Shown: positions 826-19,016, numbered from the stretch's first letter. The stretch: 64,000 bases of DNA from an uncultured Collinsella sp. (GCA_959606035.1 CAUHHB010000001.1:343886-407885); one strand, 5' to 3'. Made by a program: numbers and translations. The notes: generated from the letters alone by a model not told the origin.

Positions 826-833
826 AATAATGA

Positions 834-1862: not shown

Positions 1863-1866
1863 GTGC

Positions 1867-2706: not shown

Positions 2707-2741
2707 CGGCTTTGCGGGCGCTTCAAAGTATGAGATCGCCT

Positions 2742-5339
2742 TTACCGTAGAAGCAGCTTGGCTGCCTCGGAGGCTTGCGTCGAACCGTCTTCGAGGTAGA
2801 CTAAGCATCGGAATAGCCTCTTTGTCAAGCCTTCGGTTGCAGTGAAACTTATGGTGCTGCTTTTCGAGGTGACACCTCCGATTGCGGTGTTGTACCAGGT
2901 CCTGCCTCCGTTGTCAGAACATTGCCATTGAAATGCGGCCGCGTGCTCAGCGTCGATTGAGAACGAGGCCTCAATTCCTGCGCTCGTTGCGCAATCTTTC
3001 GGCTGCGTGGTGATCCTCTCTTTATTCGACAATAACGAGAGTTTGGCGTTTTGAGTCGCAGCTGTTGTTCCATCCTGGAAGGTGACAACGCACCTGTAGA
3101 GACGTTTCGCAAGTGCGGCACTGGCGGTGAACCGCAGCGTAGGCAGCTTTGAGGCGGCATTGCCAATCCCGGTGTCGTACCAGCCCTTCCCATCATTGTC
3201 GGAACATTGCCACTGGTACGAGATGGCACCTAGGGCTCGCACGGAGAAAGACGCTTCGGATCCAGTCGAGGCGGCCGTGTCTCGCGGTTGCCCGGTTATT
3301 TGGTTAGCGCTTAGTTTTAGTTGCGCAGTGTTTGAAGCCGAGCTAGTCCCATCAGGGAAGAATGCCAAGCATCTATAGCGGCGTTTTGACAATCCCGTAC
3401 TTGCAGTGAACTCGATTCTCGCCTGCGTGGAAGTCTCACCTCCGATCCCCGTGTTGTACCATGATCTGCCCTCATTGTCGGAGCATTGCCACTGGAACGA
3501 AGTAGCCCGCTCTGCTTCGATGGCGAAGAACGCTGTTGACCCTGCGGCAGTTGTGCAGTCTTCGGGCTGGGAGCTGATGGCGTATCGGGCGACAAGGACG
3601 AGGCGTGCGGGCTCGCTTGCGAGGGTGCTGCTGTTCGGGAACGAGACTAGGCAGCGGTAGAGCCTCTTCGCGAGCTGGGCATTGGATGCAAACCTCAGGG
3701 TTTTCTGCCTGGAAGTTTCGCCGCCTATACCCGTGTTGTACCAACTTGAACCTCCGTTGTCGGAGCATTGCCATTGGAACGATGTCGCGCTTGGTGCCGT
3801 TACGGTGAATTCGGCTTGGGCTCCGTTGTATACTTCAAAGTCCTTCGGCATGGTTGTTATGGCGTACGTGGTCTCATAGCTTGCTGTGAGGTCGTACTTG
3901 GCGCTCCATTTGCTGTTCGATTCTTTTGTGACGCTAGATGCCGCCATAAGCTCAACTTTTGCGCCATCAGTCTTCCACTCCCTCAGATTCATCGCATAAG
4001 CAACAATCCCATTCTGAATTCCCGAGATGCTCGGCGGGAACGACTGGTTATCAGCATCAATAGAAAAGCTTTCTGCCTTAGCATCCAAGTTCTGCTGAAT
4101 ACGGTCGGCATACTTTTCGGCCCATTCATCAGCCTTGCCGTTTCGCACAAAGTAATTGTTGGACAGGTCGGTTGAGCGGTAGGCGTAGTCGGCCTTTTGG
4201 TAGTTGGCCGTGTGGTCGGAGTGGGCGATTGCCATGAGCTCGTCGGTCAGGCCAAAGTACAGATGGCGCTGGTCTAGGTCTCCGTACCAATTGTCACTGG
4301 TGTCGTCCCAGGTTAGGTCCATCTGGCACCATTTGCTGTCGATCTTTACGGCGTTCCAGGTGTGGCCGTTGCCGGTGATGCGGCCGTTGGCGATGCCCGC
4401 GGCGTCAAGGAGCTTGGAGTAGATGCGCTGGTAGCTCTCGCAGGTGCCCTGGTGGCGCGTGAGGCCGCTTTCGGCCGAGCACCAGTTGAGGTTGTGGTCG
4501 TACTCCAGCTGGTCGAGCGTCCAGTCGTGGAGCCAAAGCGCCATGTCGTATTCCGAGCCGTCTGTCTCTTGCCTGCACAGGTCCACGGCGCTGTTGACGA
4601 TCTGCGTGACGCTCGGGCGGGCGGCGTCGTTTACGGTCACCTCCGCCGTGGTACGCAGGTAGTAGATCCCCTTGTCGTTTTGGGGGTCGTTTCTGTCGTT
4701 GTCCATAAAGTAGAAGTAGATGCGGTACGTGCCCGATGCCGTGAATTCAAAGGTAAAGTCGTGGCCCGCGGTGCCCAGGCTGTTGTAGCTGCCCCATGCC
4801 GGGCGCGACGGGTCGCAGACGCTTTCCTGGCTGCCGCCGTCCCAATAGGTGGGCACGTCCATGCGCGCCTTGGCCTGGGACGAGCCGTTGGCTTGGGTTA
4901 CGTGGAAGGTCGTCGCGGTGCCCGCGGGGGCGTCGTTCCACGAGACGGTGAAGGTGACGCCGTTTTGGGTTGCCGTTGCTGAGTGGGCGTAGCCGGCTTG
5001 TGACGTGGTGGAGATTGCCTCGGGCGTGCCGTTGGTTTGGGCACGAAGGGATGGGGCGGGGGTGCCGGTTGCGGCGGCGGTGCCGTCGGCGCTTTCCGTG
5101 TTGACGGCGCTGGTGCCGGTGGATGTTGCGGTGCTGTCCTCTGCGGTATCTGCTGTCGTATTTGTGTTGGTGCCGTCTTCGGCCTTGCCTGTGTCGCTGC
5201 TCGTGGCGTCGGCTTGCGCTTGCTGCTCGGCGGCTGCCTGAGGCTGGATGGCTTCCGCGATGGCCGCCATGGGCATCGTCGCGCCGACTATGGACGTGCA
5301 CGCGATCGCGCAGAGCAGGTAGTAAAGGGATCGTTTCAT
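2742..5339 (-). CDS. secreted transglutaminase-like (Cys-His-Asp) domain protein with four C-terminal Ig-like repeats
   Basis: Signal peptide MKRSLYYLLCAIACTSIVGA. Transglutaminase-like core ...GTCESYQRIYSKLLDAAGIANGRITGNGHTWNAVK...MDLTWDD. Four ~93-aa repeats FQWQCSDNGG..WYNTGIGG...YRC. Start chosen at MKRS (5339) rather than ORF-track 5402. Confidence 0.7.
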   Translation of the reverse strand: MKRSLYYLLCAIACTSIVGATMPMAAIAEAIQPQAAAEQQAQADATSSDTGKAEDGTNTNTTADTAEDSTATSTGTSAVNTESADGTAAATGTPAPSLRAQTNGTPEAISTTSQAGYAHSATATQNGVTFTVSWNDAPAGTATTFHVTQANGSSQAKARMDVPTYWDGGSQESVCDPSRPAWGSYNSLGTAGHDFTFEFTASGTYRIYFYFMDNDRNDPQNDKGIYYLRTTAEVTVNDAARPSVTQIVNSAVDLCRQETDGSEYDMALWLHDWTLDQLEYDHNLNWCSAESGLTRHQGTCESYQRIYSKLLDAAGIANGRITGNGHTWNAVKIDSKWCQMDLTWDDTSDNWYGDLDQRHLYFGLTDELMAIAHSDHTANYQKADYAYRSTDLSNNYFVRNGKADEWAEKYADRIQQNLDAKAESFSIDADNQSFPPSISGIQNGIVAYAMNLREWKTDGAKVELMAASSVTKESNSKWSAKYDLTASYETTYAITTMPKDFEVYNGAQAEFTVTAPSATSFQWQCSDNGGSSWYNTGIGGETSRQKTLRFASNAQLAKRLYRCLVSFPNSSTLASEPARLVLVARYAISSQPEDCTTAAGSTAFFAIEAERATSFQWQCSDNEGRSWYNTGIGGETSTQARIEFTASTGLSKRRYRCLAFFPDGTSSASNTAQLKLSANQITGQPRDTAASTGSEASFSVRALGAISYQWQCSDNDGKGWYDTGIGNAASKLPTLRFTASAALAKRLYRCVVTFQDGTTAATQNAKLSLLSNKERITTQPKDCATSAGIEASFSIDAEHAAAFQWQCSDNGGRTWYNTAIGGVTSKSSTISFTATEGLTKRLFRCLVYLEDGSTQASEAAKLLLR
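2850..3900. repeat. four tandem ~275-280 bp coding repeats (Ig-like domain repeats of the transglutaminase-like gene)
   Basis: Recurrent DNA blocks, e.g. ...ccgatccccgtgttgtacca...cattgtcggagcattgccactggaacga at ~2875, ~3165, ~3440, ~3720. Confidence 0.8.
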
Positions 5340-5461
5340 AGCGGAGCCTCTCGGTGAGCAGCCAATAGGGTCCGAAGGCAGCTCCAGGCCAGCACTCCGC
5401 ACATTTTTTGTTGGGGATTATTTTACGGGAACCCCAGTCAACATCAGCGAACTTTCTGGGG
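5215..5461. repeat. direct repeat copy A (5' coding end + upstream region of the transglutaminase-like gene)
   Basis: About 90% identical to 7960-8290. The shared string agcggagcctctcggtgagcagccaatagggtccgaaggcagctccaggccagcactccgcaca is seen in both. Confidence 0.85.
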
Positions 5462-5555
5462 ATTGTTGGGGAGGGGTGGTGGACTGGTGGGCTGGCGCCA
5501 TAGGAGACGGCGCCAGCAACTAATACGGTTAGTCGGCGAATTGACATGGCGGCTG

Positions 5556-6284
5556 TTATTTATCGATGGCCCCGTCGTCAATAACACCCTGAATGGTCTT
5601 TGCGACATTAGAGGTCAAACGACCGACAGCAAGATCGGGGTTTTGATTGAGCCTCGTCTCTGCGACCAGTGCTGTTTCAAAATTTGAAGCAAGGTCACCA
5701 ACGTGATGATTGGTTTTTAGATTCATTCCAAGTTCATCGCTAGCAAGCTTCTCAATATATCTACGTCGACTACCCGGAGCGTGACCATTTTCCACAATAT
5801 CATTTTTATGGGGCAAAATAGTTGTCTCAAGTGCGCCGGGCTTATGCAGCATCAAGTAAAGCTCAAAGCTTGGATACGTCACGGCGACTTCAATTCTCTC
5901 TCTGCGGAAATCCTTTAGCAGCGTCGCGTACCCATCTGGATTGTTCTTAAAAACATCAACGTCAAAAACAACAACAACGCGATCGGAACCTTTAATGAAG
6001 TCGCTCCCATTAACCTGGCCATTCATAACGGCAATCGCGTGCTCCAACAGCTTCTTGGGTGAGGATTGGTTTTTCTCTCCTTCGGTTCTTTCGACCGGCT
6101 TTAGTTCAATTAGTTCCGGTTTACCCTCTTTGGCTAAACGTGTTGCAAGTGAGTCGAAGTACCAATATTCGGTATTGGCTCCTTCTCCAATGAGAAAGCA
6201 CTTTGATTTTGGCTTTTCGACTTTCCATTCGGTTCTACTGGACCAAGTGTCAAGAGAGTTAAGCGGTGGCATTTGGTTCCCCAA
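5556..6284 (-). CDS. RloB-like (TOPRIM-like, AbiLii-type) protein, partner of the upstream AAA ATPase
   Basis: KCFLIGEGANTEYWYF (TOPRIM-like E-G-E), VVVVFDVD (DxD) and SFELYLMLH match the RloB family pattern. Overlaps the upstream ATPase gene by ~26 nt, suggesting an operon. Confidence 0.7.
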   Translation of the reverse strand: MGNQMPPLNSLDTWSSRTEWKVEKPKSKCFLIGEGANTEYWYFDSLATRLAKEGKPELIELKPVERTEGEKNQSSPKKLLEHAIAVMNGQVNGSDFIKGSDRVVVVFDVDVFKNNPDGYATLLKDFRRERIEVAVTYPSFELYLMLHKPGALETTILPHKNDIVENGHAPGSRRRYIEKLASDELGMNLKTNHHVGDLASNFETALVAETRLNQNPDLAVGRLTSNVAKTIQGVIDDGAIDK

Positions 6285-7674
6285 TCAAACCGAGCGCATC
6301 TAGAGCCCTTCCTGTTGATAAAACCGGGACGCCGCCATAGCGACCCTCAAGGTATTGCTTATTGACGCGGGCATCGGATCTTGCCCCGTTGTCTGCAAAC
6401 TTATCAAGCGGGAACAGGCTCGAATAGCCATGACGGTCACGTTCGACAAACCAGATCTCATCACGCCTGAAATAATCGAAACTCATGATCGTGTTTTCAT
6501 GGGTTGTAAATATCAGCTGGCAGTCGTCTTGCGCATGGACACGGTTAAACAGTAAGACAAGTTGCTGGGTAAGCATGGGATGAAAGCTGCGATTAAGCTC
6601 GTCAACCAGGAACAACTTGTCTTTACTGCTTGTAAATAAGATGTCCATAAAATCGAACAATCGCTTGGTTCCGTCCGATTCCTCCCTAAAATCGAAGTCA
6701 AGGATGGAGCCTTCGTGCCGCAGCTTCAGCACCGTGGCACGAGGCTCGGACGCTCCCTTGCTTTCAATGCTCAGAAATGCGTCGTCGCTGCGAAACGTTA
6801 CGTTCGACTCGGCCTTCGGGCCAGAGGGGATGTTGTCGGTCATGAAGCGTTTTACAGAAAGCAACACTTCCGAAGGAACATACTTTTCAAGTTCGTCCAT
6901 CCCTATTTCTTGTTTACGGAGGCTGCTGATGCCCGTATCAAAGGAGGCCAGTACGTTGGCAACCTTGTCCAAATTGGCTCCGTGTCCGTAAAACTCAGAA
7001 GATGCAGGGCTTTGGTTGGCTCCGATAGCCGAAAAATTCAAATTAAACCAAGAAAAAACATCCGGTAAAGCCGCCAAGGTAGATCCCTCTAAATAGTTTC
7101 TACCATTAGCAAGCGCCGATAAAAATAGCTCAGACCCTATGCTTTCGCGGACACGATGGAGGAAATCTTCGCGATAAACATTAAGCCTGGTTTTATCAAC
7201 ATCGGATGCGCCTTGTTCGAGACCTCGACAGTTAACGGAATCCGAACCGATTCTTTCAAATAACAAATTTGATTTGTCGCCGAGCTCGTAAAGCCACTCC
7301 GAAACGATTGTTAGTTGAGCTAAATTGCAGCTAAAGCCATAGTCGAACGCGCGGCCATTTTTATAGAGCTGAATATCGAAAACCGACTCCTGTTCTTTAA
7401 GGCCAGAACCGCATTTGCAATACTCGACCTGGGCCCCTTGAGGAAGTGCGCCGCTTAAAACAACATGCCTCATAAAGAGGAGCGCGGTAAAAATCGTGCT
7501 CTTTCCGGAGGCATTGCCACCGTAGATAACGGCATTCCGTAAAACGCGAGCATTTTGCGGAGTTGCGCAAATATGATTTTTAAAGCGCTGAATTTTAGAG
7601 GTCGATACCATGTCCAACGTTATCGGGTCTTCGCCTACTGACCTAAAGTTCTTAAATGAAAATCTGATAAGCAT
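6259..7674 (-). CDS. AAA_21/AAA_15-type ATPase (AbiLi / RloA-like abortive-infection ATPase)
   Basis: Walker A VIYGGNASGKST. C-terminal LFLVDELNRSFHP...LIFTTHENTIM...FRRDEIWFVERD...KQYLEGRYGGVP is typical of the ATPase partners of RloB/OLD-like nucleases. RBS AGGAG lies before the ATG. Confidence 0.85.
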   Translation of the reverse strand: MLIRFSFKNFRSVGEDPITLDMVSTSKIQRFKNHICATPQNARVLRNAVIYGGNASGKSTIFTALLFMRHVVLSGALPQGAQVEYCKCGSGLKEQESVFDIQLYKNGRAFDYGFSCNLAQLTIVSEWLYELGDKSNLLFERIGSDSVNCRGLEQGASDVDKTRLNVYREDFLHRVRESIGSELFLSALANGRNYLEGSTLAALPDVFSWFNLNFSAIGANQSPASSEFYGHGANLDKVANVLASFDTGISSLRKQEIGMDELEKYVPSEVLLSVKRFMTDNIPSGPKAESNVTFRSDDAFLSIESKGASEPRATVLKLRHEGSILDFDFREESDGTKRLFDFMDILFTSSKDKLFLVDELNRSFHPMLTQQLVLLFNRVHAQDDCQLIFTTHENTIMSFDYFRRDEIWFVERDRHGYSSLFPLDKFADNGARSDARVNKQYLEGRYGGVPVLSTGRALDALGLIGEPNATA

Positions 7675-7731
7675 GGCGTCTCCTAGGTGATCAGCTGCCT
7701 TGCATAAAAGAGGCAGTCAACAAAAGAATAG

Positions 7732-7756
7732 TATTTGACGATTTTTTCGTCAAATA
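7732..7756. promoter_or_regulatory. perfect 10-5-10 palindrome TATTTGACGA-ttttt-TCGTCAAATA upstream of the ATPase/RloB operon (candidate operator)
   Basis: Read directly in the sequence, ~60-80 nt upstream of the minus-strand ATPase start at 7674. Confidence 0.35.
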
Positions 7757-7959
7757 TATATGAGGTTGATGACGCTTGCCCATCATGCGTCCAATTTGCC
7801 GCATATTTCCGAAATTGGTCTTTGTTACAGGCTTCATTCCACTGTTGAATCAATTAGATAATGGACAAAATTGCAGAATCTGTCTCCGTGCATAAACGCC
7901 GACGGGGGCGAAATCGTTCATATCGGCAATTGGTAGGTCAGTTTGTGTTGTTTACGGCT

Positions 7960-8290
7960 TGCGCCTGCTGCTCGGCTGTTGCTCGGTTGTTGCGCGTGCT
8001 GTTGCCCGAGGCTGCATGGCTTCTGCGATGGCCGCCATGGACATCGTCGCGCCGTTCATGGACGTGCACGCGATCGCCCAGAGCGGGTAGTAAAGGGGTC
8101 GTTTCATAGCGGAGCCTCTCGGTGAGCAGCCAATAGGGTCCGAAGGCAGCTCCAGGCCAGCACTCCGCACATATTTTGTTGGGTTTATTTTCGTCTCATA
8201 TCGGGTTCGTGCGTGCGGCGTGCCAGCACTCCGCACATATTTTGTTGGGTTTATTTACGGGAACACCAGTCAACATCAGCGAACTTTCTG
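7960..8290 (-). pseudogene. direct repeat copy B: truncated duplicate of the 5' end (signal peptide + ~40 aa) and upstream leader of the transglutaminase-like gene, with an internal ~68-bp tandem duplication
   Basis: ORF 7952..8236(-) encodes ...SAGLELPSDPIGCSPRGSAMKRPLYYPLWAIACTS...AAIAEA, nearly identical to the N-terminus of the 2742..5339 protein and then diverging. gccagcactccgcacatattttgttgggtttattt occurs twice (about 8156 and 8224). Confidence 0.7.
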
Positions 8291-8635
8291 GGAAAGGTTG
8301 GGGAGGGGAGCGCGGGGTGGGCGAGGCGTGCTTGCCCAGGCGTTCAGTTCTGTGCTTATTTGCTATGCGCGATATGTTGCTATCTCGCGCCGTCTCACGA
8401 TCTCACTGAAGTTCGGCCGGCGCTGGATCCACTGTAGACGTTGAACTTTCCCATTATGTTTCGCTCCATATCCTGCTCCCCTTAGGTCGGATATCCGATC
8501 GGAGCATAGTTCCGTTTAAGAAGTTGGTGAAAGTGCGTTAACGGGATTGGCGAAAGCGCGTTGGCGCATTCGGTGAGCTGCATTTGCGAAAGTGGTTGGT
8601 TTTAGATTGGCGCAAACGGACGCGATCTACGTCGA

Positions 8636-9060
8636 GTGCCGCCGCGCTGGAGGCGCGTGATGGAAGGGTGCTGCCCGAGGGTGGCGGCGATCCTCGAGGA
8701 GGGTGAGCCGGACGCCCTGACATACTACGACCTCCCGCCGTTGCCCCGGAGGCACCTGCGCGCTAATAACGTCCAGGAGCGGGCGAACCGCAAGATAAAG
8801 TGCGGGTCGAGGATGATGCAGCCCTTCCCCTCGGCGGCATCGCTGGCGCGGCTGGCCGGTGCGGTCATGTGCGAGCAGGACGAGATATGGCAGGAGTCCA
8901 GATACTGCTCGGAGGCAAAGATGAGTGAGCTCTGCGACGAGGCCCGCACGCGCGGGGTCGACGGGACTGTCGACTGGGCGCGGTTGGAGGTCGAGGCCGG
9001 GAAGATGATCGAATCCGGCCTCGAGCTTGCGGACAGGATCGAAGCAGTACAGGATATCAA
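8636..9060 (+). mobile_element. IS256-family (mutator-type) transposase C-terminal remnant, N-terminally truncated
   Basis: AAILEEGEPDALTYYDLPPLPRRHLRANNVQERANRKIK...FPSAASLARLAGAVMCEQDEIWQ matches the conserved C-terminal block of IS256 transposases. The N-terminal DDE region is absent. Confidence 0.6.
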
Positions 9061-9075
9061 CCGTATTCCAGTTTT

Positions 9076-9829
9076 TTGGGCGCCGGGCCGACTCGCTTCG
9101 GATCGGGCGCTACACCAACTTTCTCGATACTACCCGATCCTATCGTTAGGCTTTCTTTTGATGAAATCCTAACGATAGCAAATTACTCTAAGGCCAAGAC
9201 TCGTGTATTTCTTCTCGATAGTTGTTGTTCTGGGTATTTGGGGGCTCCTAGCGCACTGGACGGGACTTCCTCAAAGCTCAGTGAGGGTTTATCAATTTTT
9301 GAGTGCATGCTGTCCTAGCGAATGTACGGAGGAGTTTAACGGGCGCGGGACATTCACATCGCTTCTTGTAGATGCGCTAAATGGCGGCGCGGCAGACCTG
9401 ATAGAGCATGTTACTCTTGGTGGGGTCTGCACGTTTATTGATGAGTCTCTCGGGCCATGGGACCAGCTGCCTGTGTTTAGGACTAATGTGAATTCTTTTA
9501 TTTCGCTGAGGAAAGACGTTCCCCAGGTTCCCGATGGCGTGTTGGGACAGCTGCCATTTTTGTTTGACGCGCCCGGTGCTAAACTGCCCTTGGATCCATC
9601 TTTTGAGCCTACCAACATTCCTGATTGGGAAGAGCATCGAATTGTGGAGCCCTATACGACTGAGGATAATTTGGGGACGTTCAAGATCCTTCAGCAGTTG
9701 GAGGGTATTCGCCTTGTCCGTTCTGTGGAGTCGGAGCATATGTATCATGCTGCTATGGAGTCCAAGTCTTGTGAACTGACGGCTCTGGGCAAGCGGTATT
9801 GGCACCTTACCACTACGGGCAAGATTTAG
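9076..9829 (+). pseudogene. caspase-like (peptidase C14-like) domain gene remnant, frameshifted and N-terminally truncated
   Basis: Frame 1 has ...KTRVFLLDSCCSGYLG (caspase catalytic-Cys-like D-x-C-x-S-G). About 30 codons later frame 3 continues with FNGRGTFTSLLVDALNGGAADLIEH, typical of the region after the catalytic Cys. The two frames are separated by a stop at 9316-9318. No His-Gly dyad region upstream, where the IS remnant sits. Confidence 0.35.
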
Positions 9830-9931
9830 CTGCTTGTCGGATTCAATTGCGTTGCTTTCAGACGGGTTAAAATTGTAACGGTTGTTATTTTCAGGCGTTA
9901 TAGCTTTGTCTGTATATGAGGTGTTTTGTAA

Positions 9932-10738
9932 ATGCTGTTCAACTTAATTGTACGTGCCAATGAGACACAGCCCATGTTGACTTCTAGGATGTTCGAGGGA
10001 ACTCCTGAGCAGTTGACGAGCGCCTATAGGACTGGCACTGGTTTTGACTTTAATGCCCTCGCTCAGCTTCCTACTGTTATGACGCGCGAATTTGAGTCGG
10101 ATGATATGGGTGCCGTGGCCACACTTGGATATATGGATACCCCGTCTATCAACCCCGTGATCTCCAAGCCTATTCTACGGTTTCCATCGCAGGCATTGTT
10201 GAATCTTGGTCTACTTGACGAGAACTGCTGGCAAAACAAACGTACTCATTGGAGACTTTGTGAAGGCGACCCTTTTCGTCTGTTTTTAAATTTTCTTGAT
10301 AACTCCCCCTTGACGGTCGGATCTGAAAGGTCTAGTGCTCATGATCCAAATTTAATTGCCGTCATGATGCCATTCACCGACGACCCTTCAATAGATCCTG
10401 TATATTCGGCGTTGATCGAAGGCTCTAAGAGGGCGGGCAAGATATGTAAACGCGCAGATGAGATATTGACGCCTACCGATATTACGGAAGACATATTTAA
10501 ACTGATTGCGTCTAGCTCTTCGGTAATTGCAGACATTACTGGCCTGAATTCAAACGTTATGTTCGAAGCGGGCTATGCGATTGGAATGGGTAAGCAGACC
10601 GTTTTTATACACCAAGGTGATGTTCCTAAGCTGCCTTTTGATGTTAGTCATAGGAGGGTATTTAGGTACAACCGGAATAAGGACGGATTGACTATACTTT
10701 CAGACATGATTTTCAAAATCTTGATGAATGCTCAATGA
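9932..10738 (+). CDS. protein with unknown N-terminal domain and C-terminal nucleoside 2-deoxyribosyltransferase-like (NDT/SLOG-like) domain
   Basis: C-terminal IAVMMPFTDD...VYSALIEGSKRAGKICKRADEI...SSSVIADITGLNSNVMFEAGYAIGMGKQTVFI resembles the NDT-like fold, with a conserved Glu in the N.NVmfEaGYAiG.gK motif. Sits in the low-GC island. Confidence 0.45.
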   Translation: MLFNLIVRANETQPMLTSRMFEGTPEQLTSAYRTGTGFDFNALAQLPTVMTREFESDDMGAVATLGYMDTPSINPVISKPILRFPSQALLNLGLLDENCWQNKRTHWRLCEGDPFRLFLNFLDNSPLTVGSERSSAHDPNLIAVMMPFTDDPSIDPVYSALIEGSKRAGKICKRADEILTPTDITEDIFKLIASSSSVIADITGLNSNVMFEAGYAIGMGKQTVFIHQGDVPKLPFDVSHRRVFRYNRNKDGLTILSDMIFKILMNAQ

Positions 10739-11371
10739 GTGCTTTCTTGAGCACTGCCGAATGCCGCGATTCTGCTGCGTCGATATTGCGCTTGGACACC
10801 GGGGCAGACTTGGCTTCGGTGTCCATTTGTTGCTAGTTGCCGGCCTCACGGTGCTGTCGTATGTCGCTCTCGCGCATGCCGACTCAGCACGCGTTGTGCG
10901 ATACCGCTCATCTATCAAACGTCGTGACTTGTCGAATTGTTAGGCAATCTGTTCGCTCACGGTCTCATAATCAAATAAACGCAACCCCTCTTCCACGGAG
11001 ACCAGATGTCTGAGCCGATCGTCGGAAAACTTGCCTGCTGCAACATCATTAACTGCGCAACTATTACGTTAAAACCCAATGTAACCACTGTTTTGCACGG
11101 AATGGACAGGGCGATGCATATGACGGGGTCGAGGCCGTAAAAGTTACTTTTCGAAAGAATCTTGACGGCACCTTATTCGTAGGGTTTTCGCCTACGGTGA
11201 GGTCGTGAACATCAATCGCAAGCGCGGAACTATCAATCGGGGCCGAAAAGAAGGGCGAGCTGAAGTGCTGCATGTTGCTGCTTCCGAAAGCATCCAAGTG
11301 GGGGCTTGCTGGCGGTCTAGGGCGTACACTATGGGTGAAGCCATTACGGCGGGCTGGCTAATTGTTAGAAG

Positions 11372-12421
11372 GTGAGCATGGGATACATAATCCGTTCATC
11401 GGAAAAGACATCTTCCTCGGCTAGCGAGATGGAGACTAAGGCGCTCCTCCATCTGCTCTGTGAGGATGGAGGCAATGGAAACATCATTGGGTTTGCCATC
11501 GACTTCTTCAACGATGTTACAGGGATGGATCGGAACGCCCTTAGGCTTTATGATATACAGTCTAAGGGCACCGATTCTGGCCCATCGGCTTTAGGCCAAG
11601 AGTTGGTTACCTTATATAAGAATTACATCAGCGAATTCAAGAGGTTCTTTGTTGCTCAAATTCTTTTTGTGCGTAGCGTGACTAGGCCAGTCCTTGGGGA
11701 CCAGTTGCTCACTGAGTTCAGGTACCGCGATATGACGGAAGCTGCTCAGATAAAGCTCCGTTCAAGTTTCGTGCAGATGTGCAGAGATAAGACATACATT
11801 GATAATGACTTCTTGGACGATGAAGCCATAGATGCCTTCCTTGATCAGGTCCTATTTGTTGTTGCAAAACCTGATAAGGAAGATTATATTCGTCCTCTCA
11901 TCAAGACAAATAATGCTCTGGGCACGACAGACAGAGATTTGCGGGCAATATTCGCTGAAATTAGAAAAAAGCAACTCGGCATAAAAACCTCTTCAAAGGT
12001 CGAGGGACTTGAGCTTAAGAGTCCGTCTGAGGCCTACAACTCCGGTCGCATTCTTAGGAGATCTGATATTGAGCTACTTGTCATCTCGCGAGTACTTAAC
12101 AGAAACCCATTAAAGGCAGGCATGCCTAAACCCTTTGAATCAATTTACAACGGCTTCGAAGAGGATTATGCAGAAGAAATGCTGGAAGGTTGTCAAAACG
12201 ATCTCGCCAAGCAAATGTTCACTACACCTGAGGCGTCTGCCTTTTGGAAACTTCTGAACGACATTGTGACAGCAATAAAAAATGATCCGGACAAAGGTGT
12301 CGAAGAAATTTATAGGGAAATCCCCTTATCTACTTTGGATGGCTGTAGGCAAATGGATGCTCTGTCGCATCAGTACTTTATATCGATTGTTAAGGAGGGG
12401 CTGAAAATTGATAAAGATTAA
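11372..12421 (+). CDS. hypothetical protein (349 aa). First gene of a two-gene module with an SMC-like ATPase. Possible LmuA/effector-like component.
   Basis: Clean ORF in the low-GC island, overlapping the downstream gene by 14 nt. No confidently recognisable domain. The N-terminal LLCEDGG...AIDFF...LYDIQSKG could be a degenerate PD-(D/E)xK-like motif (speculative). Start is either GTG 11372 or ATG 11378. Confidence 0.5.
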   Translation: MSMGYIIRSSEKTSSSASEMETKALLHLLCEDGGNGNIIGFAIDFFNDVTGMDRNALRLYDIQSKGTDSGPSALGQELVTLYKNYISEFKRFFVAQILFVRSVTRPVLGDQLLTEFRYRDMTEAAQIKLRSSFVQMCRDKTYIDNDFLDDEAIDAFLDQVLFVVAKPDKEDYIRPLIKTNNALGTTDRDLRAIFAEIRKKQLGIKTSSKVEGLELKSPSEAYNSGRILRRSDIELLVISRVLNRNPLKAGMPKPFESIYNGFEEDYAEEMLEGCQNDLAKQMFTTPEASAFWKLLNDIVTAIKNDPDKGVEEIYREIPLSTLDGCRQMDALSHQYFISIVKEGLKIDKD

Positions 12422-14036
12422 GGCTGTCTATATCGGAAATGGCGCAGAGTCCTATATTGAGGATAGGTTAACTGATGGCACCAACGTCATCTATAGTCTC
12501 GATAATAACCGTGGGAAAACAGTCTTGATGCAGGGTGCGATGTATGCTCTCGGTGCAATACCGACGTTTCCTGAGCGCTTCCCTTATAAGGAGTACATTT
12601 ATATCGTTGACCTTGATATCGACGGCAATGAGGTGTCTGTTCTGCGAAGCCGAAATACTTTTGCTGTTAAGACATCTGATAGTCTGAGCCTTTTCGATAG
12701 CGAGGCGGATTACTCTCGATACTGGAGTGAGAATTTCAGACGTTTGCCGAGCATCGTTAAAAACGGGCGATTGACGTCAGTTGGCCTTCAGCTCTATACG
12801 CAGATGGCGTTTATCGGACAAGATGATATTTCATCCGCAAAGATAACTGCTGGTCAGTTTAATAAGGATGATTTCACTGAGATGCTTTATGCCATTGCGG
12901 GGTTTGACGGGAGGGAACTTGATTCGGCCGAGGAGATTGCGCTCAAACGCCGAAGAGATGAACTGAAGGGGCTAATTAAATCGTTGGCCAAAGAAGCATC
13001 TGCGTTAAACGCGCGAGGTACGGCGCTGTCCGCAATTAGCGCAACAACTGACGCGCGTGACATGCAAGAGTTCCTAAAAGAACTTGATTCCGCACGTGCC
13101 GAGGTTACCGATTTAAGGAAGACGCGCAGTCGTTATCTGGCTCGTTTGACCAAGAATCAAATAGTTCTCGACGAGCTTAATTCATTGAGACGCGAAGTAA
13201 AATCGGGTAAGCTCGTGTGCCTAAAATGCGGCAGCGTCTCAGTCGGATATCAGATGGCCGACTCGGATGTTATTTTCGATGTCACATCTCCTGACATGAG
13301 AACTCAAATTATCAATACACTTAAGGAGCGCATCTATGCAATCGAGGCAGACCTCGATGCCCTGGAACGCAATCTGCGGAAGTCGCAGAATCGCTTGAGC
13401 GGTCTTCTTTCCAAAAATGATGAATTTAGCCTGATGGATGTTGTTGCATGCAAAGATGAATATCTAAATGAACAGGAAATAGATCAAAAAATGCAGGAGG
13501 CTCAAAGGGAACTGGATGACGTTAAGGATAAGCTCGAATCAGACAGAGTTCTGACAAGTGAAATCGCAAAACTGAGAAAAGAGTTTATGGACGACCTTCT
13601 TGGAAAGATGAATCTGGCAAGAAGGGCAATCTCGGATAATACTGAGGAATCTTCTTACGAAAGTTTGTTCAGCACCAAAGCAAACGTTTATTCGGGGAGC
13701 GACGGCACCATCTATTTTGCCGCTAGGACCTTTGCGATTGCTTCCAAGATCGATCACGGCATGCCAATAATGATTGATTCGTTCAGGGCCGACGATCTTT
13801 CTTCCGACCGCGAAGACCGGCTTTTGGATCTCCTGGGTAAACTTGACAATCAGATTATCCTAACAACGACGATTAAACGCGAAGAAAGTGCCGGCCCCGA
13901 TGCGTCAAAGTACGAGAGAGACCCGCGCGTCTATGCTATTAACTATTCGAACCATGAAATCAATAGGATAATGAGTGATGTCTATAATGATCGTTTTGCC
14001 GAAAAGGCGGCAGACTTCGGATTGGTTCTTAGATAG
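12408..14036 (+). CDS. SMC/RecF/RecN-like ABC ATPase with central coiled coil and a degenerate Walker B / H-loop
   Basis: N-terminal IKIKAVYIGNGAESY...NVIYSLDNNRGKTVLMQGAMYALG is an SMC-head-like strand plus a Walker A variant (LDNNRGKT). The long coiled-coil-type middle is rich in E/K/R/L. C-terminal YSGSDGTIYFAARTFAIAS (signature-like), PIMIDSF (Walker B Asp followed by Ser instead of Glu) and NQIILTTT (H-loop without His). TTG start is 9 nt after a strong RBS TAAGGAGGGG. Confidence 0.6.
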   Translation: MIKIKAVYIGNGAESYIEDRLTDGTNVIYSLDNNRGKTVLMQGAMYALGAIPTFPERFPYKEYIYIVDLDIDGNEVSVLRSRNTFAVKTSDSLSLFDSEADYSRYWSENFRRLPSIVKNGRLTSVGLQLYTQMAFIGQDDISSAKITAGQFNKDDFTEMLYAIAGFDGRELDSAEEIALKRRRDELKGLIKSLAKEASALNARGTALSAISATTDARDMQEFLKELDSARAEVTDLRKTRSRYLARLTKNQIVLDELNSLRREVKSGKLVCLKCGSVSVGYQMADSDVIFDVTSPDMRTQIINTLKERIYAIEADLDALERNLRKSQNRLSGLLSKNDEFSLMDVVACKDEYLNEQEIDQKMQEAQRELDDVKDKLESDRVLTSEIAKLRKEFMDDLLGKMNLARRAISDNTEESSYESLFSTKANVYSGSDGTIYFAARTFAIASKIDHGMPIMIDSFRADDLSSDREDRLLDLLGKLDNQIILTTTIKREESAGPDASKYERDPRVYAINYSNHEINRIMSDVYNDRFAEKAADFGLVLR

Positions 14037-14561
14037 AAGCCCTCTATTTTATGTCTATTGTTCGTGTCACGCGAGACCTGTTGATTGCGATATTGTGTAT
14101 GGCGCCGGAGCCGATATGGGCTCCGGCACCCTTTTGTCGCTGGTGGGTGATCGATTCTAGCCACCGTATCTTGTAGCTAGAAATGAATTGTTACGACGAC
14201 CCAGGGCGAAGCTATAAAGCGTGGTCGTCAAATTAGTTCTAATCAGCACTCTGAGCTAATCACCCATCGTCCCGATGGCAGAATCCGCGCAAAGGATTCC
14301 CATGGGCACGATCCCTTCCCGCCGAGAGGATAGGGGCTTGACGCAATTGCGGCTGCGGGCATGGATTAGCGTGTCCGCAGCCGCAAACGCCTGCCGGAAG
14401 CATGCGGCAAATTCTGGAACCTCCGAGCACAACGGCTTTTCCGAATAAAGGATCCGCAGGTAGAAACATTGTGGCATTCCGGAGCGCTCGGCACGCCAGG
14501 GATTTGCCGCATACTTCCGAGTTTTGGGCCTCGTACCCTTTGCTCCAGATGCAGCAAACAC

Positions 14562-14589
14562 TTGATTGATGCTATTTAAGGTCTATAAT
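14562..14589 (+). promoter_or_regulatory. sigma-70-like promoter (TTGATT-16nt-TATAAT) in front of the second AAA ATPase/RloB operon
   Basis: Near-consensus -35/-10 hexamers with a 16-nt spacer, read in the sequence ~55 nt upstream of the proposed start. Confidence 0.35.
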
Positions 14590-14643
14590 CAAATAAAAAA
14601 TCTGAAATATCTTTTCAAAACAATGAAAGGAATTTTGAGGACG

Positions 14644-15861
14644 ATGCTTTGCCAGTTTACCTTCAGGAACTATAGATCCTATCGCGACGAAACTGAGCTT
14701 TCCATGCAGGCAACATCTATGAGGGAGTTCGAGCGCTCCCTTATAGAGTGTCCTGACGGGCAGAGTTTCCTTCCGGTGGCTGCGGTTTATGGGCCTAACG
14801 CTGGCGGCAAGTCCAACCTGCTCGAGGCTCTTGACTATATTCGTTCGGCGGTGGCAAGGCCGATCAGATTGCTGTCTGCCAGCACTGATGCGCCAGAGGG
14901 TAACCGTCCTTCGATACCCCGTTGCTCTGCGTTTGAGTTCGATGACGTGTCTGCTGCCGAGCCCACCGAGTTCGAGCTCTACTATCGCGCGGGTGAGCAC
15001 GAGTACCGCTATGCCCTGTCCGTGCATGCGGACGAGATCGTGTCCGAAGGCCTGTGGCGGCGAAAATTGGGAGCGTCACGCACGGCGATGCTGTTCGAGC
15101 GTGAGGGCGCAGAGGTTGAACTCGGCCCCACGCTGCGTAAGCTCGTGACGGCTGCGAGATTCAACCCGAGACTGCCGTACCTGTCGTTTCTCTGCATCAA
15201 CTTTGACGCGCCGGTGGTCAAGGAAGCTGCCAGCTGGTTTCTTGACGGGGTGTTCCTGAACTATAACAGCTCCTATCTGGAGCAGATGCTCGAGCAATTG
15301 CTCGACGAGGATGACTCACCCGACGTCACGCGTTTTTTGCGCGCCGTTGATGTGCGTATTGATGGCTTCAGAGTGGAGAGGGCGCCGGAGTGGCGCGGCC
15401 AGCGCGTCTTCGTGAGGCACAAGGTGAGCGGCAAGGCGTACGAGCTGCGTTTATCCGAGGAATCTGCCGGAACCCAGAAGCTCATGGGGTTGGCTGCGTA
15501 TCTGATGACAGCGCTTGAGCGTGGTGGCACCGTTGTGGTAGACGAGCTCGACGCCAAACTGCACCCGAAGCTTCTTCGCTATGTGATTCTGCTGTTTAAG
15601 GATCCTGGGGTCAACAAGAGTGGCGCGCAGCTCATCTTCTCGTCCCAGGATGTTTCAACCATGCGAAACGATGTGTTCCGCCGTGACGAGATATGGTTCG
15701 CTGCGCGCGGCGAGGGGGAGGCGAGCCAACTGTGGTCTCTCGCCGACATCCACGAGGCAAACGGTAATCTGGTAAGCAAGAACGCGGCTTTCGACAAGCA
15801 ATACCTGTCCGGTCGCTACGGCGCCGATCCGTATCTCACCCGCATCGAGGAGTGGGATTAG
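14644..15861 (+). CDS. AAA_21-type ATPase (AbiLi / RloA-like), paralog of 6259..7674
   Basis: Start MLCQFTFRNYRSYRD parallels MLIRFSFKNFRSVGED of the first ATPase. Walker A VYGPNAGGKSN. C-terminal VVVDELDAKLHP...FRRDEIWFAARGEGE...KQYLSGRYGADPYL is shared with the first ATPase. The ORF-track start 14566 would lie inside the promoter, so start 14644 (or 14625) is preferred. Confidence 0.8.
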   Translation: MLCQFTFRNYRSYRDETELSMQATSMREFERSLIECPDGQSFLPVAAVYGPNAGGKSNLLEALDYIRSAVARPIRLLSASTDAPEGNRPSIPRCSAFEFDDVSAAEPTEFELYYRAGEHEYRYALSVHADEIVSEGLWRRKLGASRTAMLFEREGAEVELGPTLRKLVTAARFNPRLPYLSFLCINFDAPVVKEAASWFLDGVFLNYNSSYLEQMLEQLLDEDDSPDVTRFLRAVDVRIDGFRVERAPEWRGQRVFVRHKVSGKAYELRLSEESAGTQKLMGLAAYLMTALERGGTVVVDELDAKLHPKLLRYVILLFKDPGVNKSGAQLIFSSQDVSTMRNDVFRRDEIWFAARGEGEASQLWSLADIHEANGNLVSKNAAFDKQYLSGRYGADPYLTRIEEWD

Positions 15862-15862
15862 C

Positions 15863-16531
15863 ATGGTGGCGAAGAAGTCGAAGGGCTGGCGTAGCGGCAA
15901 ACGAGAGGGCCGCTCGCGCATGGTTCAGATGACGCGTCATCTTGTAGTGAGCGAGGGCAAGGAGACCGAGCCTCGCTACTTTGAGGGTGTGCGTGCGGCG
16001 TTGGGTGCGGCGAACGAGCGTAAGGTTGCCATTGTCGTTAAGGGGACCGGCAAACATACACTTGACCTACTTGACTTTGCCGTCGAACACTGCCGCTATG
16101 CGCCCGAGACATTCGACCATGTGTGGCTCGTGTATGACAAGGATGACTTTCCTGCGTCCGACTTTGACGCGATGGAGCGCAAATGCGACGAGCTCTCCGA
16201 TGGTTCGAGGACCTTCCATGCGTTGTGGTCGAACCCCTGCTTCGAGCTGTGGCCTCTTCTGCACTTTCGCTACACGACCGCGCATATGTCCGCGTCCGAC
16301 TGCCAGCATGCCCTCGCGCAGGAGATGTCGAGAGACCTGGGCATCGAGTACCGCAAGAACTTGGACGGGCTGTTCGAGGTGGTGGACGGCAAACGAGGCG
16401 AGGCATTGCAGCGTGTTGGGCGCCTCGTCACATACCATAGGGGGCTGGGTAACGTTAAGCCATCTGCGCAAAACCCTGCAACTAAGGTGGGCGAAATTTT
16501 CGATGTAATCGGGCCGTATCTGGCTGGCTAG
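15863..16531 (+). CDS. RloB-like (AbiLii-type, TOPRIM-like) protein, paralog of 5556..6284
   Basis: LVVSEGKETEPRYF, VWLVYDKDDF and ALWSNPCFELWPLLHF are the hallmark RloB motifs. Starts 2 nt after the ATPase stop. Confidence 0.75.
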   Translation: MVAKKSKGWRSGKREGRSRMVQMTRHLVVSEGKETEPRYFEGVRAALGAANERKVAIVVKGTGKHTLDLLDFAVEHCRYAPETFDHVWLVYDKDDFPASDFDAMERKCDELSDGSRTFHALWSNPCFELWPLLHFRYTTAHMSASDCQHALAQEMSRDLGIEYRKNLDGLFEVVDGKRGEALQRVGRLVTYHRGLGNVKPSAQNPATKVGEIFDVIGPYLAG

Positions 16532-16877
16532 TCGAGTCTGTGGATTGGCTTTCCGGTTAGGGCGATTGGCGGATTGTGATGCGCGATTGCAAATCCGGTG
16601 CGTAGGAGAAGTGCGGAGAAAAATCGAAACTCGCCGAGCATAGCCCGATTTCAGGCAACAAAACCGCAGGTCGCCGGAGCTCAAAACCGGGGCCTGGTCA
16701 GCAGGTCTCGGTTTTTCACCCCACTTCCGAATTGGTCGCTCATTTTGCACTCTCGAAGTCCCCACATCCTCTAAAAAAGTTCTTAAAACAGCCTTAAAGG
16801 CGCTCTGGCTCGCGTTGACAGCGTAAAATACGCATGTTTGACTATGACTAAAGTGGATTTTAGGGGAGGGGTGCGCC

Positions 16878-19016
16878 ATGGAGGTGCTGGTTGTTGGCAA
16901 CACCGCATATGTTGACGATGACTTTTGTGCCAAGGCGTTCCCCGGGGACCACGTTAAGGTCGTCGCTGCCGCAGAAGCGCGCCGCGATGAGTCGTCGCCC
17001 CATGCCTCGTGGAAAGAACTGCTCCAGCACTTGGAGCAGGCCTATGAGTTCGACCGCGTGGTCTACCTTTCTAATTACCTTACCCCGCATATCGATAGCG
17101 TGGGCGATATCGAGCTGCTGCGTTCGGTCTTTCGCGCGTGCATGGGTCGCCGGATCCAGCTGTTGTATATAGCAGGTCCCGCAGGTGCCGAGGGTGCCGC
17201 CGATGCCGCGGGGCGAACGGGCAAGGGCATTATCGCGCACGCAGCCAACGACCTGTGCCGCTACTACGCTGCTCGCGAGGGCGTTCAGACCAAGATCCTG
17301 CGCGTGCCCTTCCTGTACACTGCCTCCGCCGCGCTGGAAGATCCGTTTTTGGTGCCGTTGTTCGATGCGTGCTCAACCGGATCGGTTGCTCTGCAGGGCG
17401 CGGAGGATGCGGCGTTTCCCCTGCTGTGCGCCGAGGAACTCGCGGTGCTGATTCGCCGCATCTTTGATAGCTGGGATGCCTCTTTTGAGACGCTCGACGT
17501 TGCCGATGCCTTCCATCACACGGCGGGTGAAGTGGGCGAGGCCCTTAAGGCGCTGTTCCCCGGCCTTGCCGTTGCCTATGGTGATTCTGCCGGCTACGCC
17601 CTGCCCGCCAGCGACGTCGCTCGCGTTCGCTATGGCTGGTTTCAGCGCTACGACTTGCTGCGCGATCTTTCGACCATTCAGGCGCGTTGGGATGCTGGTC
17701 GCGCAAAGAAGGTCAACCCCTTGCGCGCCGCCATCGACCGCATCCAGATGCGCACGCAGCTTATTAAATGCCTGGAGACGGGCGTTGCCTGGGTTCTGTT
17801 CGAGGTGCTGGAGCATCTGTTCTCACAATCGGCCCAGCTCAACGTGCTCGATTATCGCCTGCTCTACGTGGTACTGATCGGCACGCTGTATGGCTTGGAC
17901 TTTGGCCTGGTTGCGGCGCTGCTGGCGTCGGTGGGTTTGGTCGCGAGTTGCTTTACTCAGTACGGCTATACATTCCAGGGCCTGTTCTATGAGCCGTCCA
18001 ACTGGCTGCCGTTTATTGCGTACTTTGTGGTTGGCGCCGTGTGCGGCTATGTGCAGCTGCGCAACAGCGAAGCCATTAGGGCGGAGCGCGATCAAAACGA
18101 GCTCGTGCGCAACCGCAATACGTTCCTTACGCAGCTCTACCACGACGCGATCGAGGACAAGCGCGCGTACAGGCGCCAGATCGTGGGTCGCCACGACAGC
18201 TTTGGCAAGATCTTTGCCGTGACGCAGGAGCTCGACGTGCTCAACCCACGCGACATCTATCGCAAGTGCTGCGAGCTTCTGGGCGAGATTCTCGAGAACG
18301 ATTCGGTGGCGATCTACCATGTTTCTGGCGGGGCATTTGCACGCCTGGTGGCGGCAAGTCCCGCGATTGCCGAAGATGCCGCACGCTCGCTCACGCTTGA
18401 GCAGCTTGCACCTCTTTTGGGCGACGGGGGTCGTTCGAACCTGTTGGTGAACCGCGAGCTGACGCCGGGGCTTCCCATGTTTGGATACACGATCGAGCGC
18501 GACGGGGCACCCGCCGTGTTGATCTTTGTGCGTAGTGCGGCCGAAAACCAAATGACCCTCTATTATCAAAATCTGTTCCGTATCTTGTGCGGGCTGGTCG
18601 AAAGCGCGCTGGGCCGTGCCTTTGACTATGAGGCGGTGGCGCAGGATAAACGCTGCGTTGACGGCACTTGCGTGCTCAAGCAGGCGGCCTTTGGCCAAGA
18701 GCTTGCGGCGGAGCAGGCGCTGGCAGATAGCAAGATGGGGAGTTTTTTGCTCCTGCGCGTGGTACCGGGCATGGAGCCTGTCGGCGAGCTGGTGGGCGCA
18801 ATTGGGTCGGCAATCCGCGAGAGCGACGCGGCGGGCTTGGTCGACGGCAACGTGCTCTACCTGCTTTTGCGCCAGGCAAAGGCGTGCGATCTTCCCATTA
18901 TCCGCGAGCGCCTGAGCGCAAAGCAGATTGCGGTGGAGCCCGTCGACGGCGAGGGCATCGTGGAGCTGCTGCAGCACATCTCTTACACCGGTGACGGTGA
19001 GGGGGGTGCCGCTTGA
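16878..19016 (+). CDS. pelD: PelD-like c-di-GMP receptor (membrane protein; GAF + degenerate GGDEF) with an extra N-terminal Rossmann/SDR-like degenerate domain
   Basis: First gene of a pelDEAFG-ordered, translationally coupled operon. Hydrophobic TM block VAWVLFEVLEHLF...VVLIGTLYGLDFGLVAALLASVGLVASCF is followed by a GAF/GGDEF-like soluble region lacking the GG(D/E)EF motif. N-terminal ~230 aa (VLVVGNTAYV...) is Rossmann-like without a GxxGxxG. Confidence 0.55.
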   Translation: MEVLVVGNTAYVDDDFCAKAFPGDHVKVVAAAEARRDESSPHASWKELLQHLEQAYEFDRVVYLSNYLTPHIDSVGDIELLRSVFRACMGRRIQLLYIAGPAGAEGAADAAGRTGKGIIAHAANDLCRYYAAREGVQTKILRVPFLYTASAALEDPFLVPLFDACSTGSVALQGAEDAAFPLLCAEELAVLIRRIFDSWDASFETLDVADAFHHTAGEVGEALKALFPGLAVAYGDSAGYALPASDVARVRYGWFQRYDLLRDLSTIQARWDAGRAKKVNPLRAAIDRIQMRTQLIKCLETGVAWVLFEVLEHLFSQSAQLNVLDYRLLYVVLIGTLYGLDFGLVAALLASVGLVASCFTQYGYTFQGLFYEPSNWLPFIAYFVVGAVCGYVQLRNSEAIRAERDQNELVRNRNTFLTQLYHDAIEDKRAYRRQIVGRHDSFGKIFAVTQELDVLNPRDIYRKCCELLGEILENDSVAIYHVSGGAFARLVAASPAIAEDAARSLTLEQLAPLLGDGGRSNLLVNRELTPGLPMFGYTIERDGAPAVLIFVRSAAENQMTLYYQNLFRILCGLVESALGRAFDYEAVAQDKRCVDGTCVLKQAAFGQELAAEQALADSKMGSFLLLRVVPGMEPVGELVGAIGSAIRESDAAGLVDGNVLYLLLRQAKACDLPIIRERLSAKQIAVEPVDGEGIVELLQHISYTGDGEGGAA

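Follow-up and report, generated by a model that had tools for sequence, protein, structure and literature searches.

A mosaic defense island between a surface-protein gene and a pel-type operon in Collinsella

The window analyzed here, a 64,000-nucleotide stretch of DNA from an uncultured Collinsella sp. (GCA_959606035.1 CAUHHB010000001.1:343886-407885), is part of a Collinsella chromosome (aerofaciens group). Our subject is the 11.4-kb interval that separates a transglutaminase-like surface-protein gene (the left anchor) from the first gene of a pel-type operon (the right anchor), in which an earlier note had placed an island of defense-type genes. We found that this interval consists of four or more pieces acquired separately, a mosaic and not a single 11-kb insertion. 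It is very probably the current fill of a Collinsella defense hotspot, built stepwise by recombination and by the activity of an insertion sequence (IS) of the IS256 family, and not by an integrase. All coordinates are those of the window unless a related locus is named.

Genes and features between the anchors

The anchors and the features between them are as follows (GC3, GC content at third codon positions).

2742-5339, minus strand: left anchor, a transglutaminase-like surface-protein gene (Transglut_core 6e-05; signal peptide present)
5210-5476: direct repeat, left copy, with the signal-peptide codons of the transglutaminase-like gene and about 140 bp upstream
5556-6284, minus strand: AbiLii-1 / RloB protein, intact (RloB 1.7e-19; AbiLii 1.5e-13; GC3 0.44)
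6259-7674, minus strand: AbiLi-1, ABC/Rad50-type ATPase, intact (PADLOC AbiLi 5.9e-80; AAA_21 2.2e-26)
7793-7820: remnant of the right arm of a palindromic repeat (ATTTGCCGCATATTTCCGA), at the joint of the AbiL1 insert and the duplicated fragment
7958-8315: direct repeat, right copy, with a pseudo 5' end of the transglutaminase-like gene and its upstream region
8316-9149, plus strand: IS256-family remnant, the 3' ~830 bp only (last ~76 residues of the transposase and right end)
9150-9829, plus strand: caspase-like (Peptidase_C14) pseudogene, lacking codons 1-100 (catalytic His region included), frameshift near 9297
9932-10738, plus strand: NDT-like protein, 268 aa, intact; N-terminal beta-rich domain and C-terminal NDT/TIR-superfamily domain
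11372-12421, plus strand: PDC-M22A, LmuA-like effector, intact (PDC-M22A 2e-128; predicted Cap4-type PD-(D/E)xK nuclease fold)
12408-14036, plus strand: PDC-M22B, LmuB-like SMC/Rad50-type ATPase, intact (PDC-M22B 5.2e-177); overlaps the PDC-M22A gene by 14 bp
14104-14189: terminator-like hairpin, followed by the AT-rich block's right junction (14188/14189)
14395-14520: palindromic repeat, copy A, upstream of AbiL2; the best promoter-like site of the region (14562-14589) follows
14566-15861, plus strand: AbiLi-2 ATPase, intact (AbiLi 3.4e-83; GC3 0.68)
15863-16531, plus strand: AbiLii-2 / RloB protein, intact (RloB 6.2e-32; AbiLii 2.9e-21)
16608-16730: palindromic repeat, copy B, its end 148 nt from the first pel gene; the slot's right edge, which is conserved, lies at 16750-16770
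16878-19016, plus strand: right anchor, the PelD-like gene that opens the pel-type operon (94-98% identity across 80 Collinsella loci)

The inventory of the earlier note was recovered, from the AAA ATPase and RloB pair on the minus strand (here AbiL1), the duplicated fragment of the neighboring gene, the IS256 transposase remnant and the disrupted caspase-like gene to the intact NDT-like protein and the second ATPase and RloB pair on the plus strand (AbiL2). Its pair of an unknown gene and an SMC-like ATPase is also present, and its identity can be refined to what is probably a divergent two-gene Lamassu. The picture of clustered, partly decayed immunity genes with IS debris likewise held up, with four intact modules, one wrecked module and the IS256 remnant, and PADLOC recognizes AbiL twice as well as PDC-M22.

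In each AbiL module the two genes lie on the same strand, overlapping in AbiL1 and 1 bp apart in AbiL2, as in the PADLOC adjacency definition of AbiL. AbiLi-1 carries a Walker A motif (GNASGKST) and a Walker B motif (LVDEL), and a protein identical to it occurs in 105 index blocks of public assemblies; AbiLii-1 is its predicted TOPRIM/OLD-type nuclease partner. The true start of AbiLi-2 is likely the ATG at 14644, which gives 405 aa as called in relatives (405-aa product in locus L205).

Base composition and synteny of the slot

The accessory stretch is indeed AT-rich, with 50.3% GC over 5460-16560 as compared to 59.8% in the pel genes and 62.5% in the remaining window, and both GC and GC3 are non-uniform across the window. 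The earlier note had put the surroundings at 62-66% GC, which is right for the right-hand side but not for the left, where 1-4400 has 52-57%. Nor is the whole of 5.5-16.5 kb AT-rich, as it had proposed. There are two AT-rich blocks only, 5477-7997 (47.0% GC) and 9150-14188 (46.8% GC), whose genes have a GC3 of 0.44-0.52 versus 0.74-0.79 in the pel genes, while the duplicated fragment and IS remnant between them (7998-9149) have 58-60% GC. The AbiL2 pair (14566-16531), with 57% GC and a GC3 of 0.68-0.71, is near host values. The composition is thus atypical in the two blocks but not in AbiL2, which is a defense gene pair as claimed but has a host-like composition and forms part of a semi-conserved backbone that 20 of 80 relatives share.

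These relatives are 80 species-level Collinsella loci (L001-L080), which were compared with the window by tblastn and blastn. On the right, DNA homology to them runs out at 16750-16770; on the left the limit is 5470-5491, just upstream of the start of the transglutaminase-like gene. The left limit is seen in at least 15 loci, and the conserved left edge of the slot is 5476. In the 17 loci with both anchors visible, the space between them holds 4.7-9.65 kb of other content and is never zero, so that gene content at this position is not conserved and in none of them is the transglutaminase-like gene directly next to the first pel gene. The AbiL1, caspase-like, NDT-like and PDC-M22 genes were found in none of the 80 loci. 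AbiL2, by comparison, occupies the same position in 20 of them at 85-96% protein identity, and in most of these, as in the window, it ends ~350 bp ahead of the pel gene.

Clustering the open reading frames (ORFs) of 110 aa or longer that lie upstream of the pel gene, across the window and the 80 loci, gave 148 clusters, which include Gabija (GajA 1e-162, GajB 5e-137), a CBASS cyclase (1e-145), SMODS with SLATT_4, AbiD/Abi_2, AbiH, Abi_alpha, reverse transcriptases, PDC-S06, PDC-S25, PDC-S28, PDC-M12A and PD-Lambda-2_B. Small MqsR-MqsA-SecB-like, HigB-HTH/M78 and HTH-centered modules adjoin the pel gene. Since the slot is filled in all 17 of these loci with differing contents, we regard it as a permanently occupied hotspot for defense and toxin-antitoxin genes that has no normally empty site. 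The earlier view of a defense island inserted between a surface gene and the pel operon therefore stands as regards the defense island (two AbiL modules, PDC-M22, a TIR-effector-like gene and a caspase remnant in 11 kb, with constant flanks and varying content), but its single insertion is replaced by a mosaic without an empty site.

An independent metagenome contig of 329 kb contains the complete composite island, at 98.7% identity over 11.7 kb. Together with the recurrence of the AbiLi-1 protein in public assemblies, this indicates a circulating haplotype and not an assembly artifact. Consistent with the earlier argument against phage-type integration, no integrase domain was found in the island ORFs scanned (at least 80 aa), there is no tRNA within 29 kb of the region, and megablast of the island against 50,697 phage and 72,556 plasmid records gave no match.

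Chromosomal defense islands and hotspots between conserved core genes have been described in E. coli, Pseudomonas aeruginosa and Vibrio. The Collinsella slot resembles them in its fixed anchors and in strain-specific fills drawn from many unrelated defense families, as well as in low GC, IS debris, decayed systems beside intact ones and the lack of a dedicated integrase. It differs in its host, a gut actinobacterium (Coriobacteriia), in lying between two cell-surface loci, one of which is strain-variable left of 4000, and in being subdivided by a host-specific 126-nt palindromic repeat. Our literature search found no paper on this Collinsella locus.

On the right, 21792-23219 is a PelF equivalog (323 bits; cut-off 100), preceded by genes for a TPR protein and a DUF2194 protein, and DUF3492 is likewise found in the pel-type operon. 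On the left, the N-terminal 190-450 aa of the anchor protein are 81-93% identical in the 17 loci, and conservation of its gene among relatives is restricted to the 5' ~1.3 kb, with DNA homology spanning only ~4000-5476; its match to the NCBIfam transglutaminase-related lipoprotein (6e-11) is under the cut-off. Window 1-4000, which holds pyruvyl transferase, GT2 and SDR polysaccharide-synthesis genes and the 3' half of the transglutaminase-like gene (52-57% GC), has no DNA homolog in the 80 related loci by blastn, and the contig that carries the island at 98.7% identity switches to different glycan genes left of 3986. The defense hotspot thus borders on a second variable region, one of surface-glycan genes. 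The 3' part of the anchor gene contains four tandem ~280-bp units at 2859-3788 (84-nt core 68-79% identical), which probably encode repeated Ig-like domains. An Rfam scan of the window returned just two tRNA genes, a tandem pair of tRNA-Asn(GTT) 35 bp apart (46162-46236 and 46271-46345); they are its only tRNAs and bear no relation to the island.

Decayed and divergent modules

Decay is seen at the left end of the second AT-rich block. ORF 8636-9172, on the plus strand, covers no more of the Transposase_mut profile than its final 76 positions (304-379 of 379; 7.7e-12), and the window contains neither a whole Mutator-type transposase nor both ends of an IS256-family element. The remnant shares 80% identity with the end of a full-length L211 copy, and the same IS256 end was found at the contig ends of L003 and L074. 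Directly beyond it, 9150-9829 corresponds, at 57-69% identity, to residues ~101-326 of a 326-aa protein that is intact in L081, and retains the Cys motif LLDSCCSG; the intact caspase-like relative matches Peptidase_C14 at 1.4e-11. L081 was reached through homologs of the NDT-like protein, and its positions 7220-12258 correspond to 9150-14188 of the window at 91.7%, with homology that begins exactly at 9150 and stops at 14188.

The gene order in L081 is a ThsB_TIR protein (135 aa), small unknowns (62 and 204 aa), the intact Peptidase_C14 protein (326 aa), the NDT-like gene and the PDC-M22 pair. L205, L206 and L207 have the identical order of TIR, ~202-aa protein, caspase and NDT, and the L205 copy lies within this very hotspot. 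The four-gene cluster extends over 5695-8807 in L081, 5649-8739 in L205, 2469-5559 in L206 and 7674-10765 in L207, and the TIR gene of these relatives matches ThsB_TIR at 4e-17. Because the copy in the window starts at about codon 101 right after the IS256 remnant and is frameshifted, we read it as the stump of a TIR-caspase operon, an addition to the disrupted gene of the earlier note; the TIR-caspase system is dead in the window.

The pairing of a TIR protein with a caspase-like protein defines type IV Thoeris (Rousset et al., bioRxiv 10.1101/2024.10.24.620036). The likeness to this system (ThsB-type TIR with caspase-like ThsE) lies in the relatives, whose caspase-like gene shares an operon with the 135-aa ThsB_TIR gene inside defense islands. 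The relatives differ from the described two-gene system in having two extra genes (the ~202-aa unknown and the NDT-like gene), while in the window the TIR gene is gone, with the IS256 remnant in its place, and the caspase is a pseudogene, so that neither an adjacent ThsB-type gene nor an intact caspase-like protease is found there. Searches of PDB sequences with the caspase and TIR proteins of the relatives gave weak matches only (E 1.6e-05 or weaker) and were uninformative. In L207, a DUF4062 protein and an inositol-phosphatase-like gene (5772-7582) lie directly upstream of the TIR-caspase cluster; the DUF4062 family has reportedly been recognized of late as the TIR-like NADases of the Swarozyc system.

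The NDT-like protein carries the NDT-type motif NVMFEAGYAIG and an invariant glutamate, E212. Its distant homologs are standalone elsewhere, or have an AbiJ_NTD5 domain in place of the N-terminal domain, and a PDB sequence search with it gave a single marginal and uninformative match (E 0.055). We infer that this NDT/TIR-fold protein may be a self-contained single-gene sensor-effector that cleaves the N-glycosidic bond of a nucleotide or of NAD.

For the PDC-M22 pair, three observations led us to a provisional assignment as a divergent branch of two-gene (type I) Lamassu. PDC-M22B matches nine PADLOC LmuB models with a best value of 2.7e-20, one match covering residues 21-502; the modeled fold of PDC-M22A, in which a D...D-x-Q-x-K pattern is invariant, is closest to the LmuA and Cap4 nucleases; and the third gene, LmuC, is absent beside A and B in the window, in L081 and L208 and in Listeria seeligeri and Gallibacterium anatis, where the overlapping pair is kept beside restriction-modification genes. 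The pair thus resembles type I Lamassu (Bacillus cellulasensis LmuAB, PDB 9ux8) in its overlapping two-gene operon, its SMC-like B ATPase matching LmuB and its lack of LmuC, but its sequences are too divergent for direct detection by sequence: PDC-M22A has no Pfam (including DUF4297) or PDB match by sequence, and PDC-M22B no PDB match by sequence. Our literature search for PDC-M22 found no paper. In Lamassu, LmuB holds monomeric LmuA until DNA ends are sensed, upon which LmuA forms an active tetramer (bioRxiv 10.1101/2025.06.23.660979).

A ~130-nt sequence ending in a GC-rich hairpin and a T run lies 3' of several island genes (10747-10883 and 14090-14140; 12170-12215 and 12383-12514 in L081) and recurs in other loci at ~75% identity, and it is probably a shared terminator module. 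Promoter and terminator scans of the region showed no enrichment over shuffles.

The two AbiL modules, which the earlier note saw as bracketing the island in inverted orientation, do lie on opposite strands at both ends, but they are distant paralogs whose arrangement has no structural meaning. AbiLi-1 and AbiLi-2 are 26% identical, their RloB proteins cannot be aligned and no DNA inverted repeat was found within 1-20000, so the bracketing is coincidental and we rejected the modules as structural arms. AbiL has been grouped with PARIS as an ABC ATPase combined with a TOPRIM/OLD nuclease (PMC13064643). Like AbiL of Lactococcus, RloAB of Campylobacter and PARIS (AriA/AriB), both modules pair the gene of an AAA_21/Rad50-type ATPase with a subsequent gene for an RloB protein, predicted to have a TOPRIM/OLD nuclease fold, and the difference is that the window holds two such divergent copies in one island.

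AbiL1 is enclosed in direct repeats (5210-5476 and 7958-8315, 93% identical) that cover the first ~43 codons of the anchor gene and its upstream region, the right copy having an extra 66-bp internal tandem duplication (8156-8193 / 8222-8259). Window 7793-8191 aligns to L070 1254-1630 at 80%, in an alignment that begins inside a full copy of the palindromic repeat (L070 1149-1273), which in L070 is followed by a truncated 5' fragment of the anchor gene. The 270-bp direct repeat around AbiL1 would point to a single crossover or to unequal exchange involving two locus variants. Two island variants, L209 (8836-11118) and L210 (9137-11419), have the AbiL1 RloB gene truncated or missing, and both carry an IS21-family element (IstB and rve) past a ricin-lectin variant of the surface-protein gene, which indicates that decay and IS traffic are ongoing in this haplotype.

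The palindromic repeat and the proposed assembly of the region

The repeat that flanks AbiL2 is an intergenic, imperfect palindrome of ~126 nt with arms CGGAAGT...ACTTCCG, which occurs in two subtypes and has no Rfam match. A profile built from the window copies finds it in 70 of the 80 loci and in the window; in these loci it invariably precedes the pel gene and stands between modules, in many cases as two tandem copies 10 nt apart. A pattern scan of metagenome contigs (loci within L083-L202) found 108 true copies, of which ~60 are at the hotspot, 37 lie between genes for a CoA-enzyme activase and a 3-hydroxyacyl-CoA dehydrogenase, 7 are near rpoC/fusA and 5 are near a DUF3990 gene. Two further pattern matches, in viral contigs, were chance matches and not the repeat. 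The two subtypes keep their arm symmetry through paired changes; RNAalifold on 39 copies recovered the outer 10-bp stem alone, because indels between the subtypes upset the alignment.

Its copies at unlinked housekeeping sites mark the element as a low-copy dispersed repeat similar to enterobacterial repetitive intergenic consensus (ERIC) sequences or miniature inverted-repeat transposable elements (MITEs), enriched at the hotspot. It shares with them the imperfect palindrome, the intergenic position, the several unlinked chromosomal sites and the two subtypes with symmetric arms, and differs in being low-copy, clustered and tandem at the hotspot and without an Rfam family or an identified transposase or target duplication. 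Copies of the repeat may provide the homology through which modules are exchanged, and may account for the numerous contig breaks at this locus, while a dedicated recombination role is not supported. A different palindromic element lies at 29030-29160, downstream of the pel cluster, with arms CTACTACGTTTAAG / CTAAACGTAGTAG and GGTCGACCACACC / GGTGTGGTCGAGG and a weak match (22 bits) to the repeat profile.

Could the repeats instead be site-specific recombination sites, like integron attC or pdif, and the region upstream of the pel operon a true cassette array? Copies flank AbiL2 on both sides and separate modules in most of the 80 loci, modules begin 20-40 nt right of a copy, the subtype tends to track the downstream module, and both arms change together between subtypes, all of which speaks for this view. 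However, single copies sit at conserved housekeeping sites (the activase/dehydrogenase and rpoC/fusA sites), so the repeat is not confined to cassette boundaries; no recombinase was seen beside the repeat, nor an integrase in the window ORFs scanned; and slot 1 of the hotspot (5476-14394) holds several modules with no repeat between them. The metagenome scan, by placing copies at housekeeping sites, led us to drop this integron-like reading as the main explanation, and we consider it quite unlikely. A related proposal, in which the repeat serves as recombination joint and transcriptional insulator for swapping defense and toxin-antitoxin modules, an attC/pdif analog that works through host recombination with no linked integrase, seems to us improbable, if slightly less so; if true, the repeat would be the element that makes the hotspot modular and not a passive MITE.

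The other alternatives concern how the DNA arrived. An IS256 composite transposon, with an IS at each end that later decayed or was lost, is a possible vehicle for the delivery or rearrangement of the AT-rich core 9150-14188, although we hold this to be less than an even chance. The IS256 remnant abuts the left end at 9149; L211, which otherwise matches the window at 98.7%, has a full-length IS256-family transposase gene of like orientation whose start falls exactly on the right junction (14190); L081 has the same IS256 end 55 nt past its junction; and many related-locus contigs break at this IS256. The remnant at the left end and the right junctions of L211 and L081 make IS256 activity at both ends likely. 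Against a composite transposon, neither the window nor L208 has an IS at 14189, and the left IS interrupts a gene of the block itself, so that it may be a later insertion and the right IS an independent one in some strains. A transfer of all 11 kb at once, as a single genomic island into a formerly empty site, would suit the contiguous, uniformly defense-related genes, an overall GC of 50% well under that of the host and the recurrence of the identical arrangement in other metagenome contigs. This reading is already largely refuted and very improbable, since AbiL2 has host-like GC3 and, unaccompanied by the other modules, is found at this position in 20 of 80 species, the block 9150-14188 stands in a different context in L081, AbiL1 is enclosed in its own direct repeat and no relative has an empty site. 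A decayed prophage or integrative-element remnant, which the low GC, the IS debris and abortive-infection genes of a kind often carried by prophages might suggest, is hardly credible in view of the missing integrase, tRNA, structural and replication genes, the lack of megablast matches among phage and plasmid records, and the viral-contig matches that proved not to be the repeat.

We thus favor stepwise assembly of a hotspot fill by recombination and IS256 activity. The backbone would be the host-like AbiL2 pair between its two repeat copies, which is present at the same place in a quarter of the related species. To this the foreign block 9150-14188 would have been added, originally as a TIR-202aa-caspase-NDT operon followed by the two-gene Lamassu, the intact form seen in relatives; homology to five AbiL2-backbone loci begins at 14188/14189, where the L081 homology ends. 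An IS256-family element would then have landed in the caspase gene, which is truncated and frameshifted, and most of that IS would subsequently have been lost in a deletion, together with the TIR gene, the 202-aa gene and caspase codons 1-100. AbiL1, the second AT-rich piece, would have been added with duplication of 270 bp of the 5' end of the anchor gene by single crossover or unequal exchange.

As to function, the families suggest that in each AbiL pair the ABC/Rad50-type ATPase would hold or sense and the TOPRIM/OLD-type RloB nuclease would kill, in a PARIS-like abortive infection. In the Lamassu-like pair, the SMC-type B protein may sequester the Cap4-like nuclease A until phage DNA ends are met, whereupon A would be released, oligomerize and cut DNA.

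Several points weigh against this account. The order of assembly is read from the junctions alone, the window lacks the right-hand IS copy of L211, and an IS-mediated origin of the 14188 junction is unproven. A recombinase elsewhere in the hotspot could have been missed; no integrase was among the top 25 of 71 Pfam families listed in the census of the other loci. All the proposed mechanisms are drawn from homology or fold: PDC-M22A is just 8% identical to LmuA over the structural alignment, PADLOC files PDC-M22 as a separate, unvalidated candidate family, and the mechanism of AbiL is still open in the literature (PMC13064643).

Conceptually, the locus is one more example of a defense hotspot and brings no new principle. 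It offers a provisional, fold-based placement of the untested candidate PDC-M22 in type I Lamassu, presents a type IV Thoeris-like operon caught mid-decay and yields two leads, the four-gene TIR-caspase variant and the locus-enriched palindromic repeat. Collinsella is a common genus of the human gut whose phage defenses are barely described, and the fixed anchors, the 5' end of the transglutaminase-like gene and the first pel gene, are usable to harvest defense systems from hundreds of Collinsella genomes.

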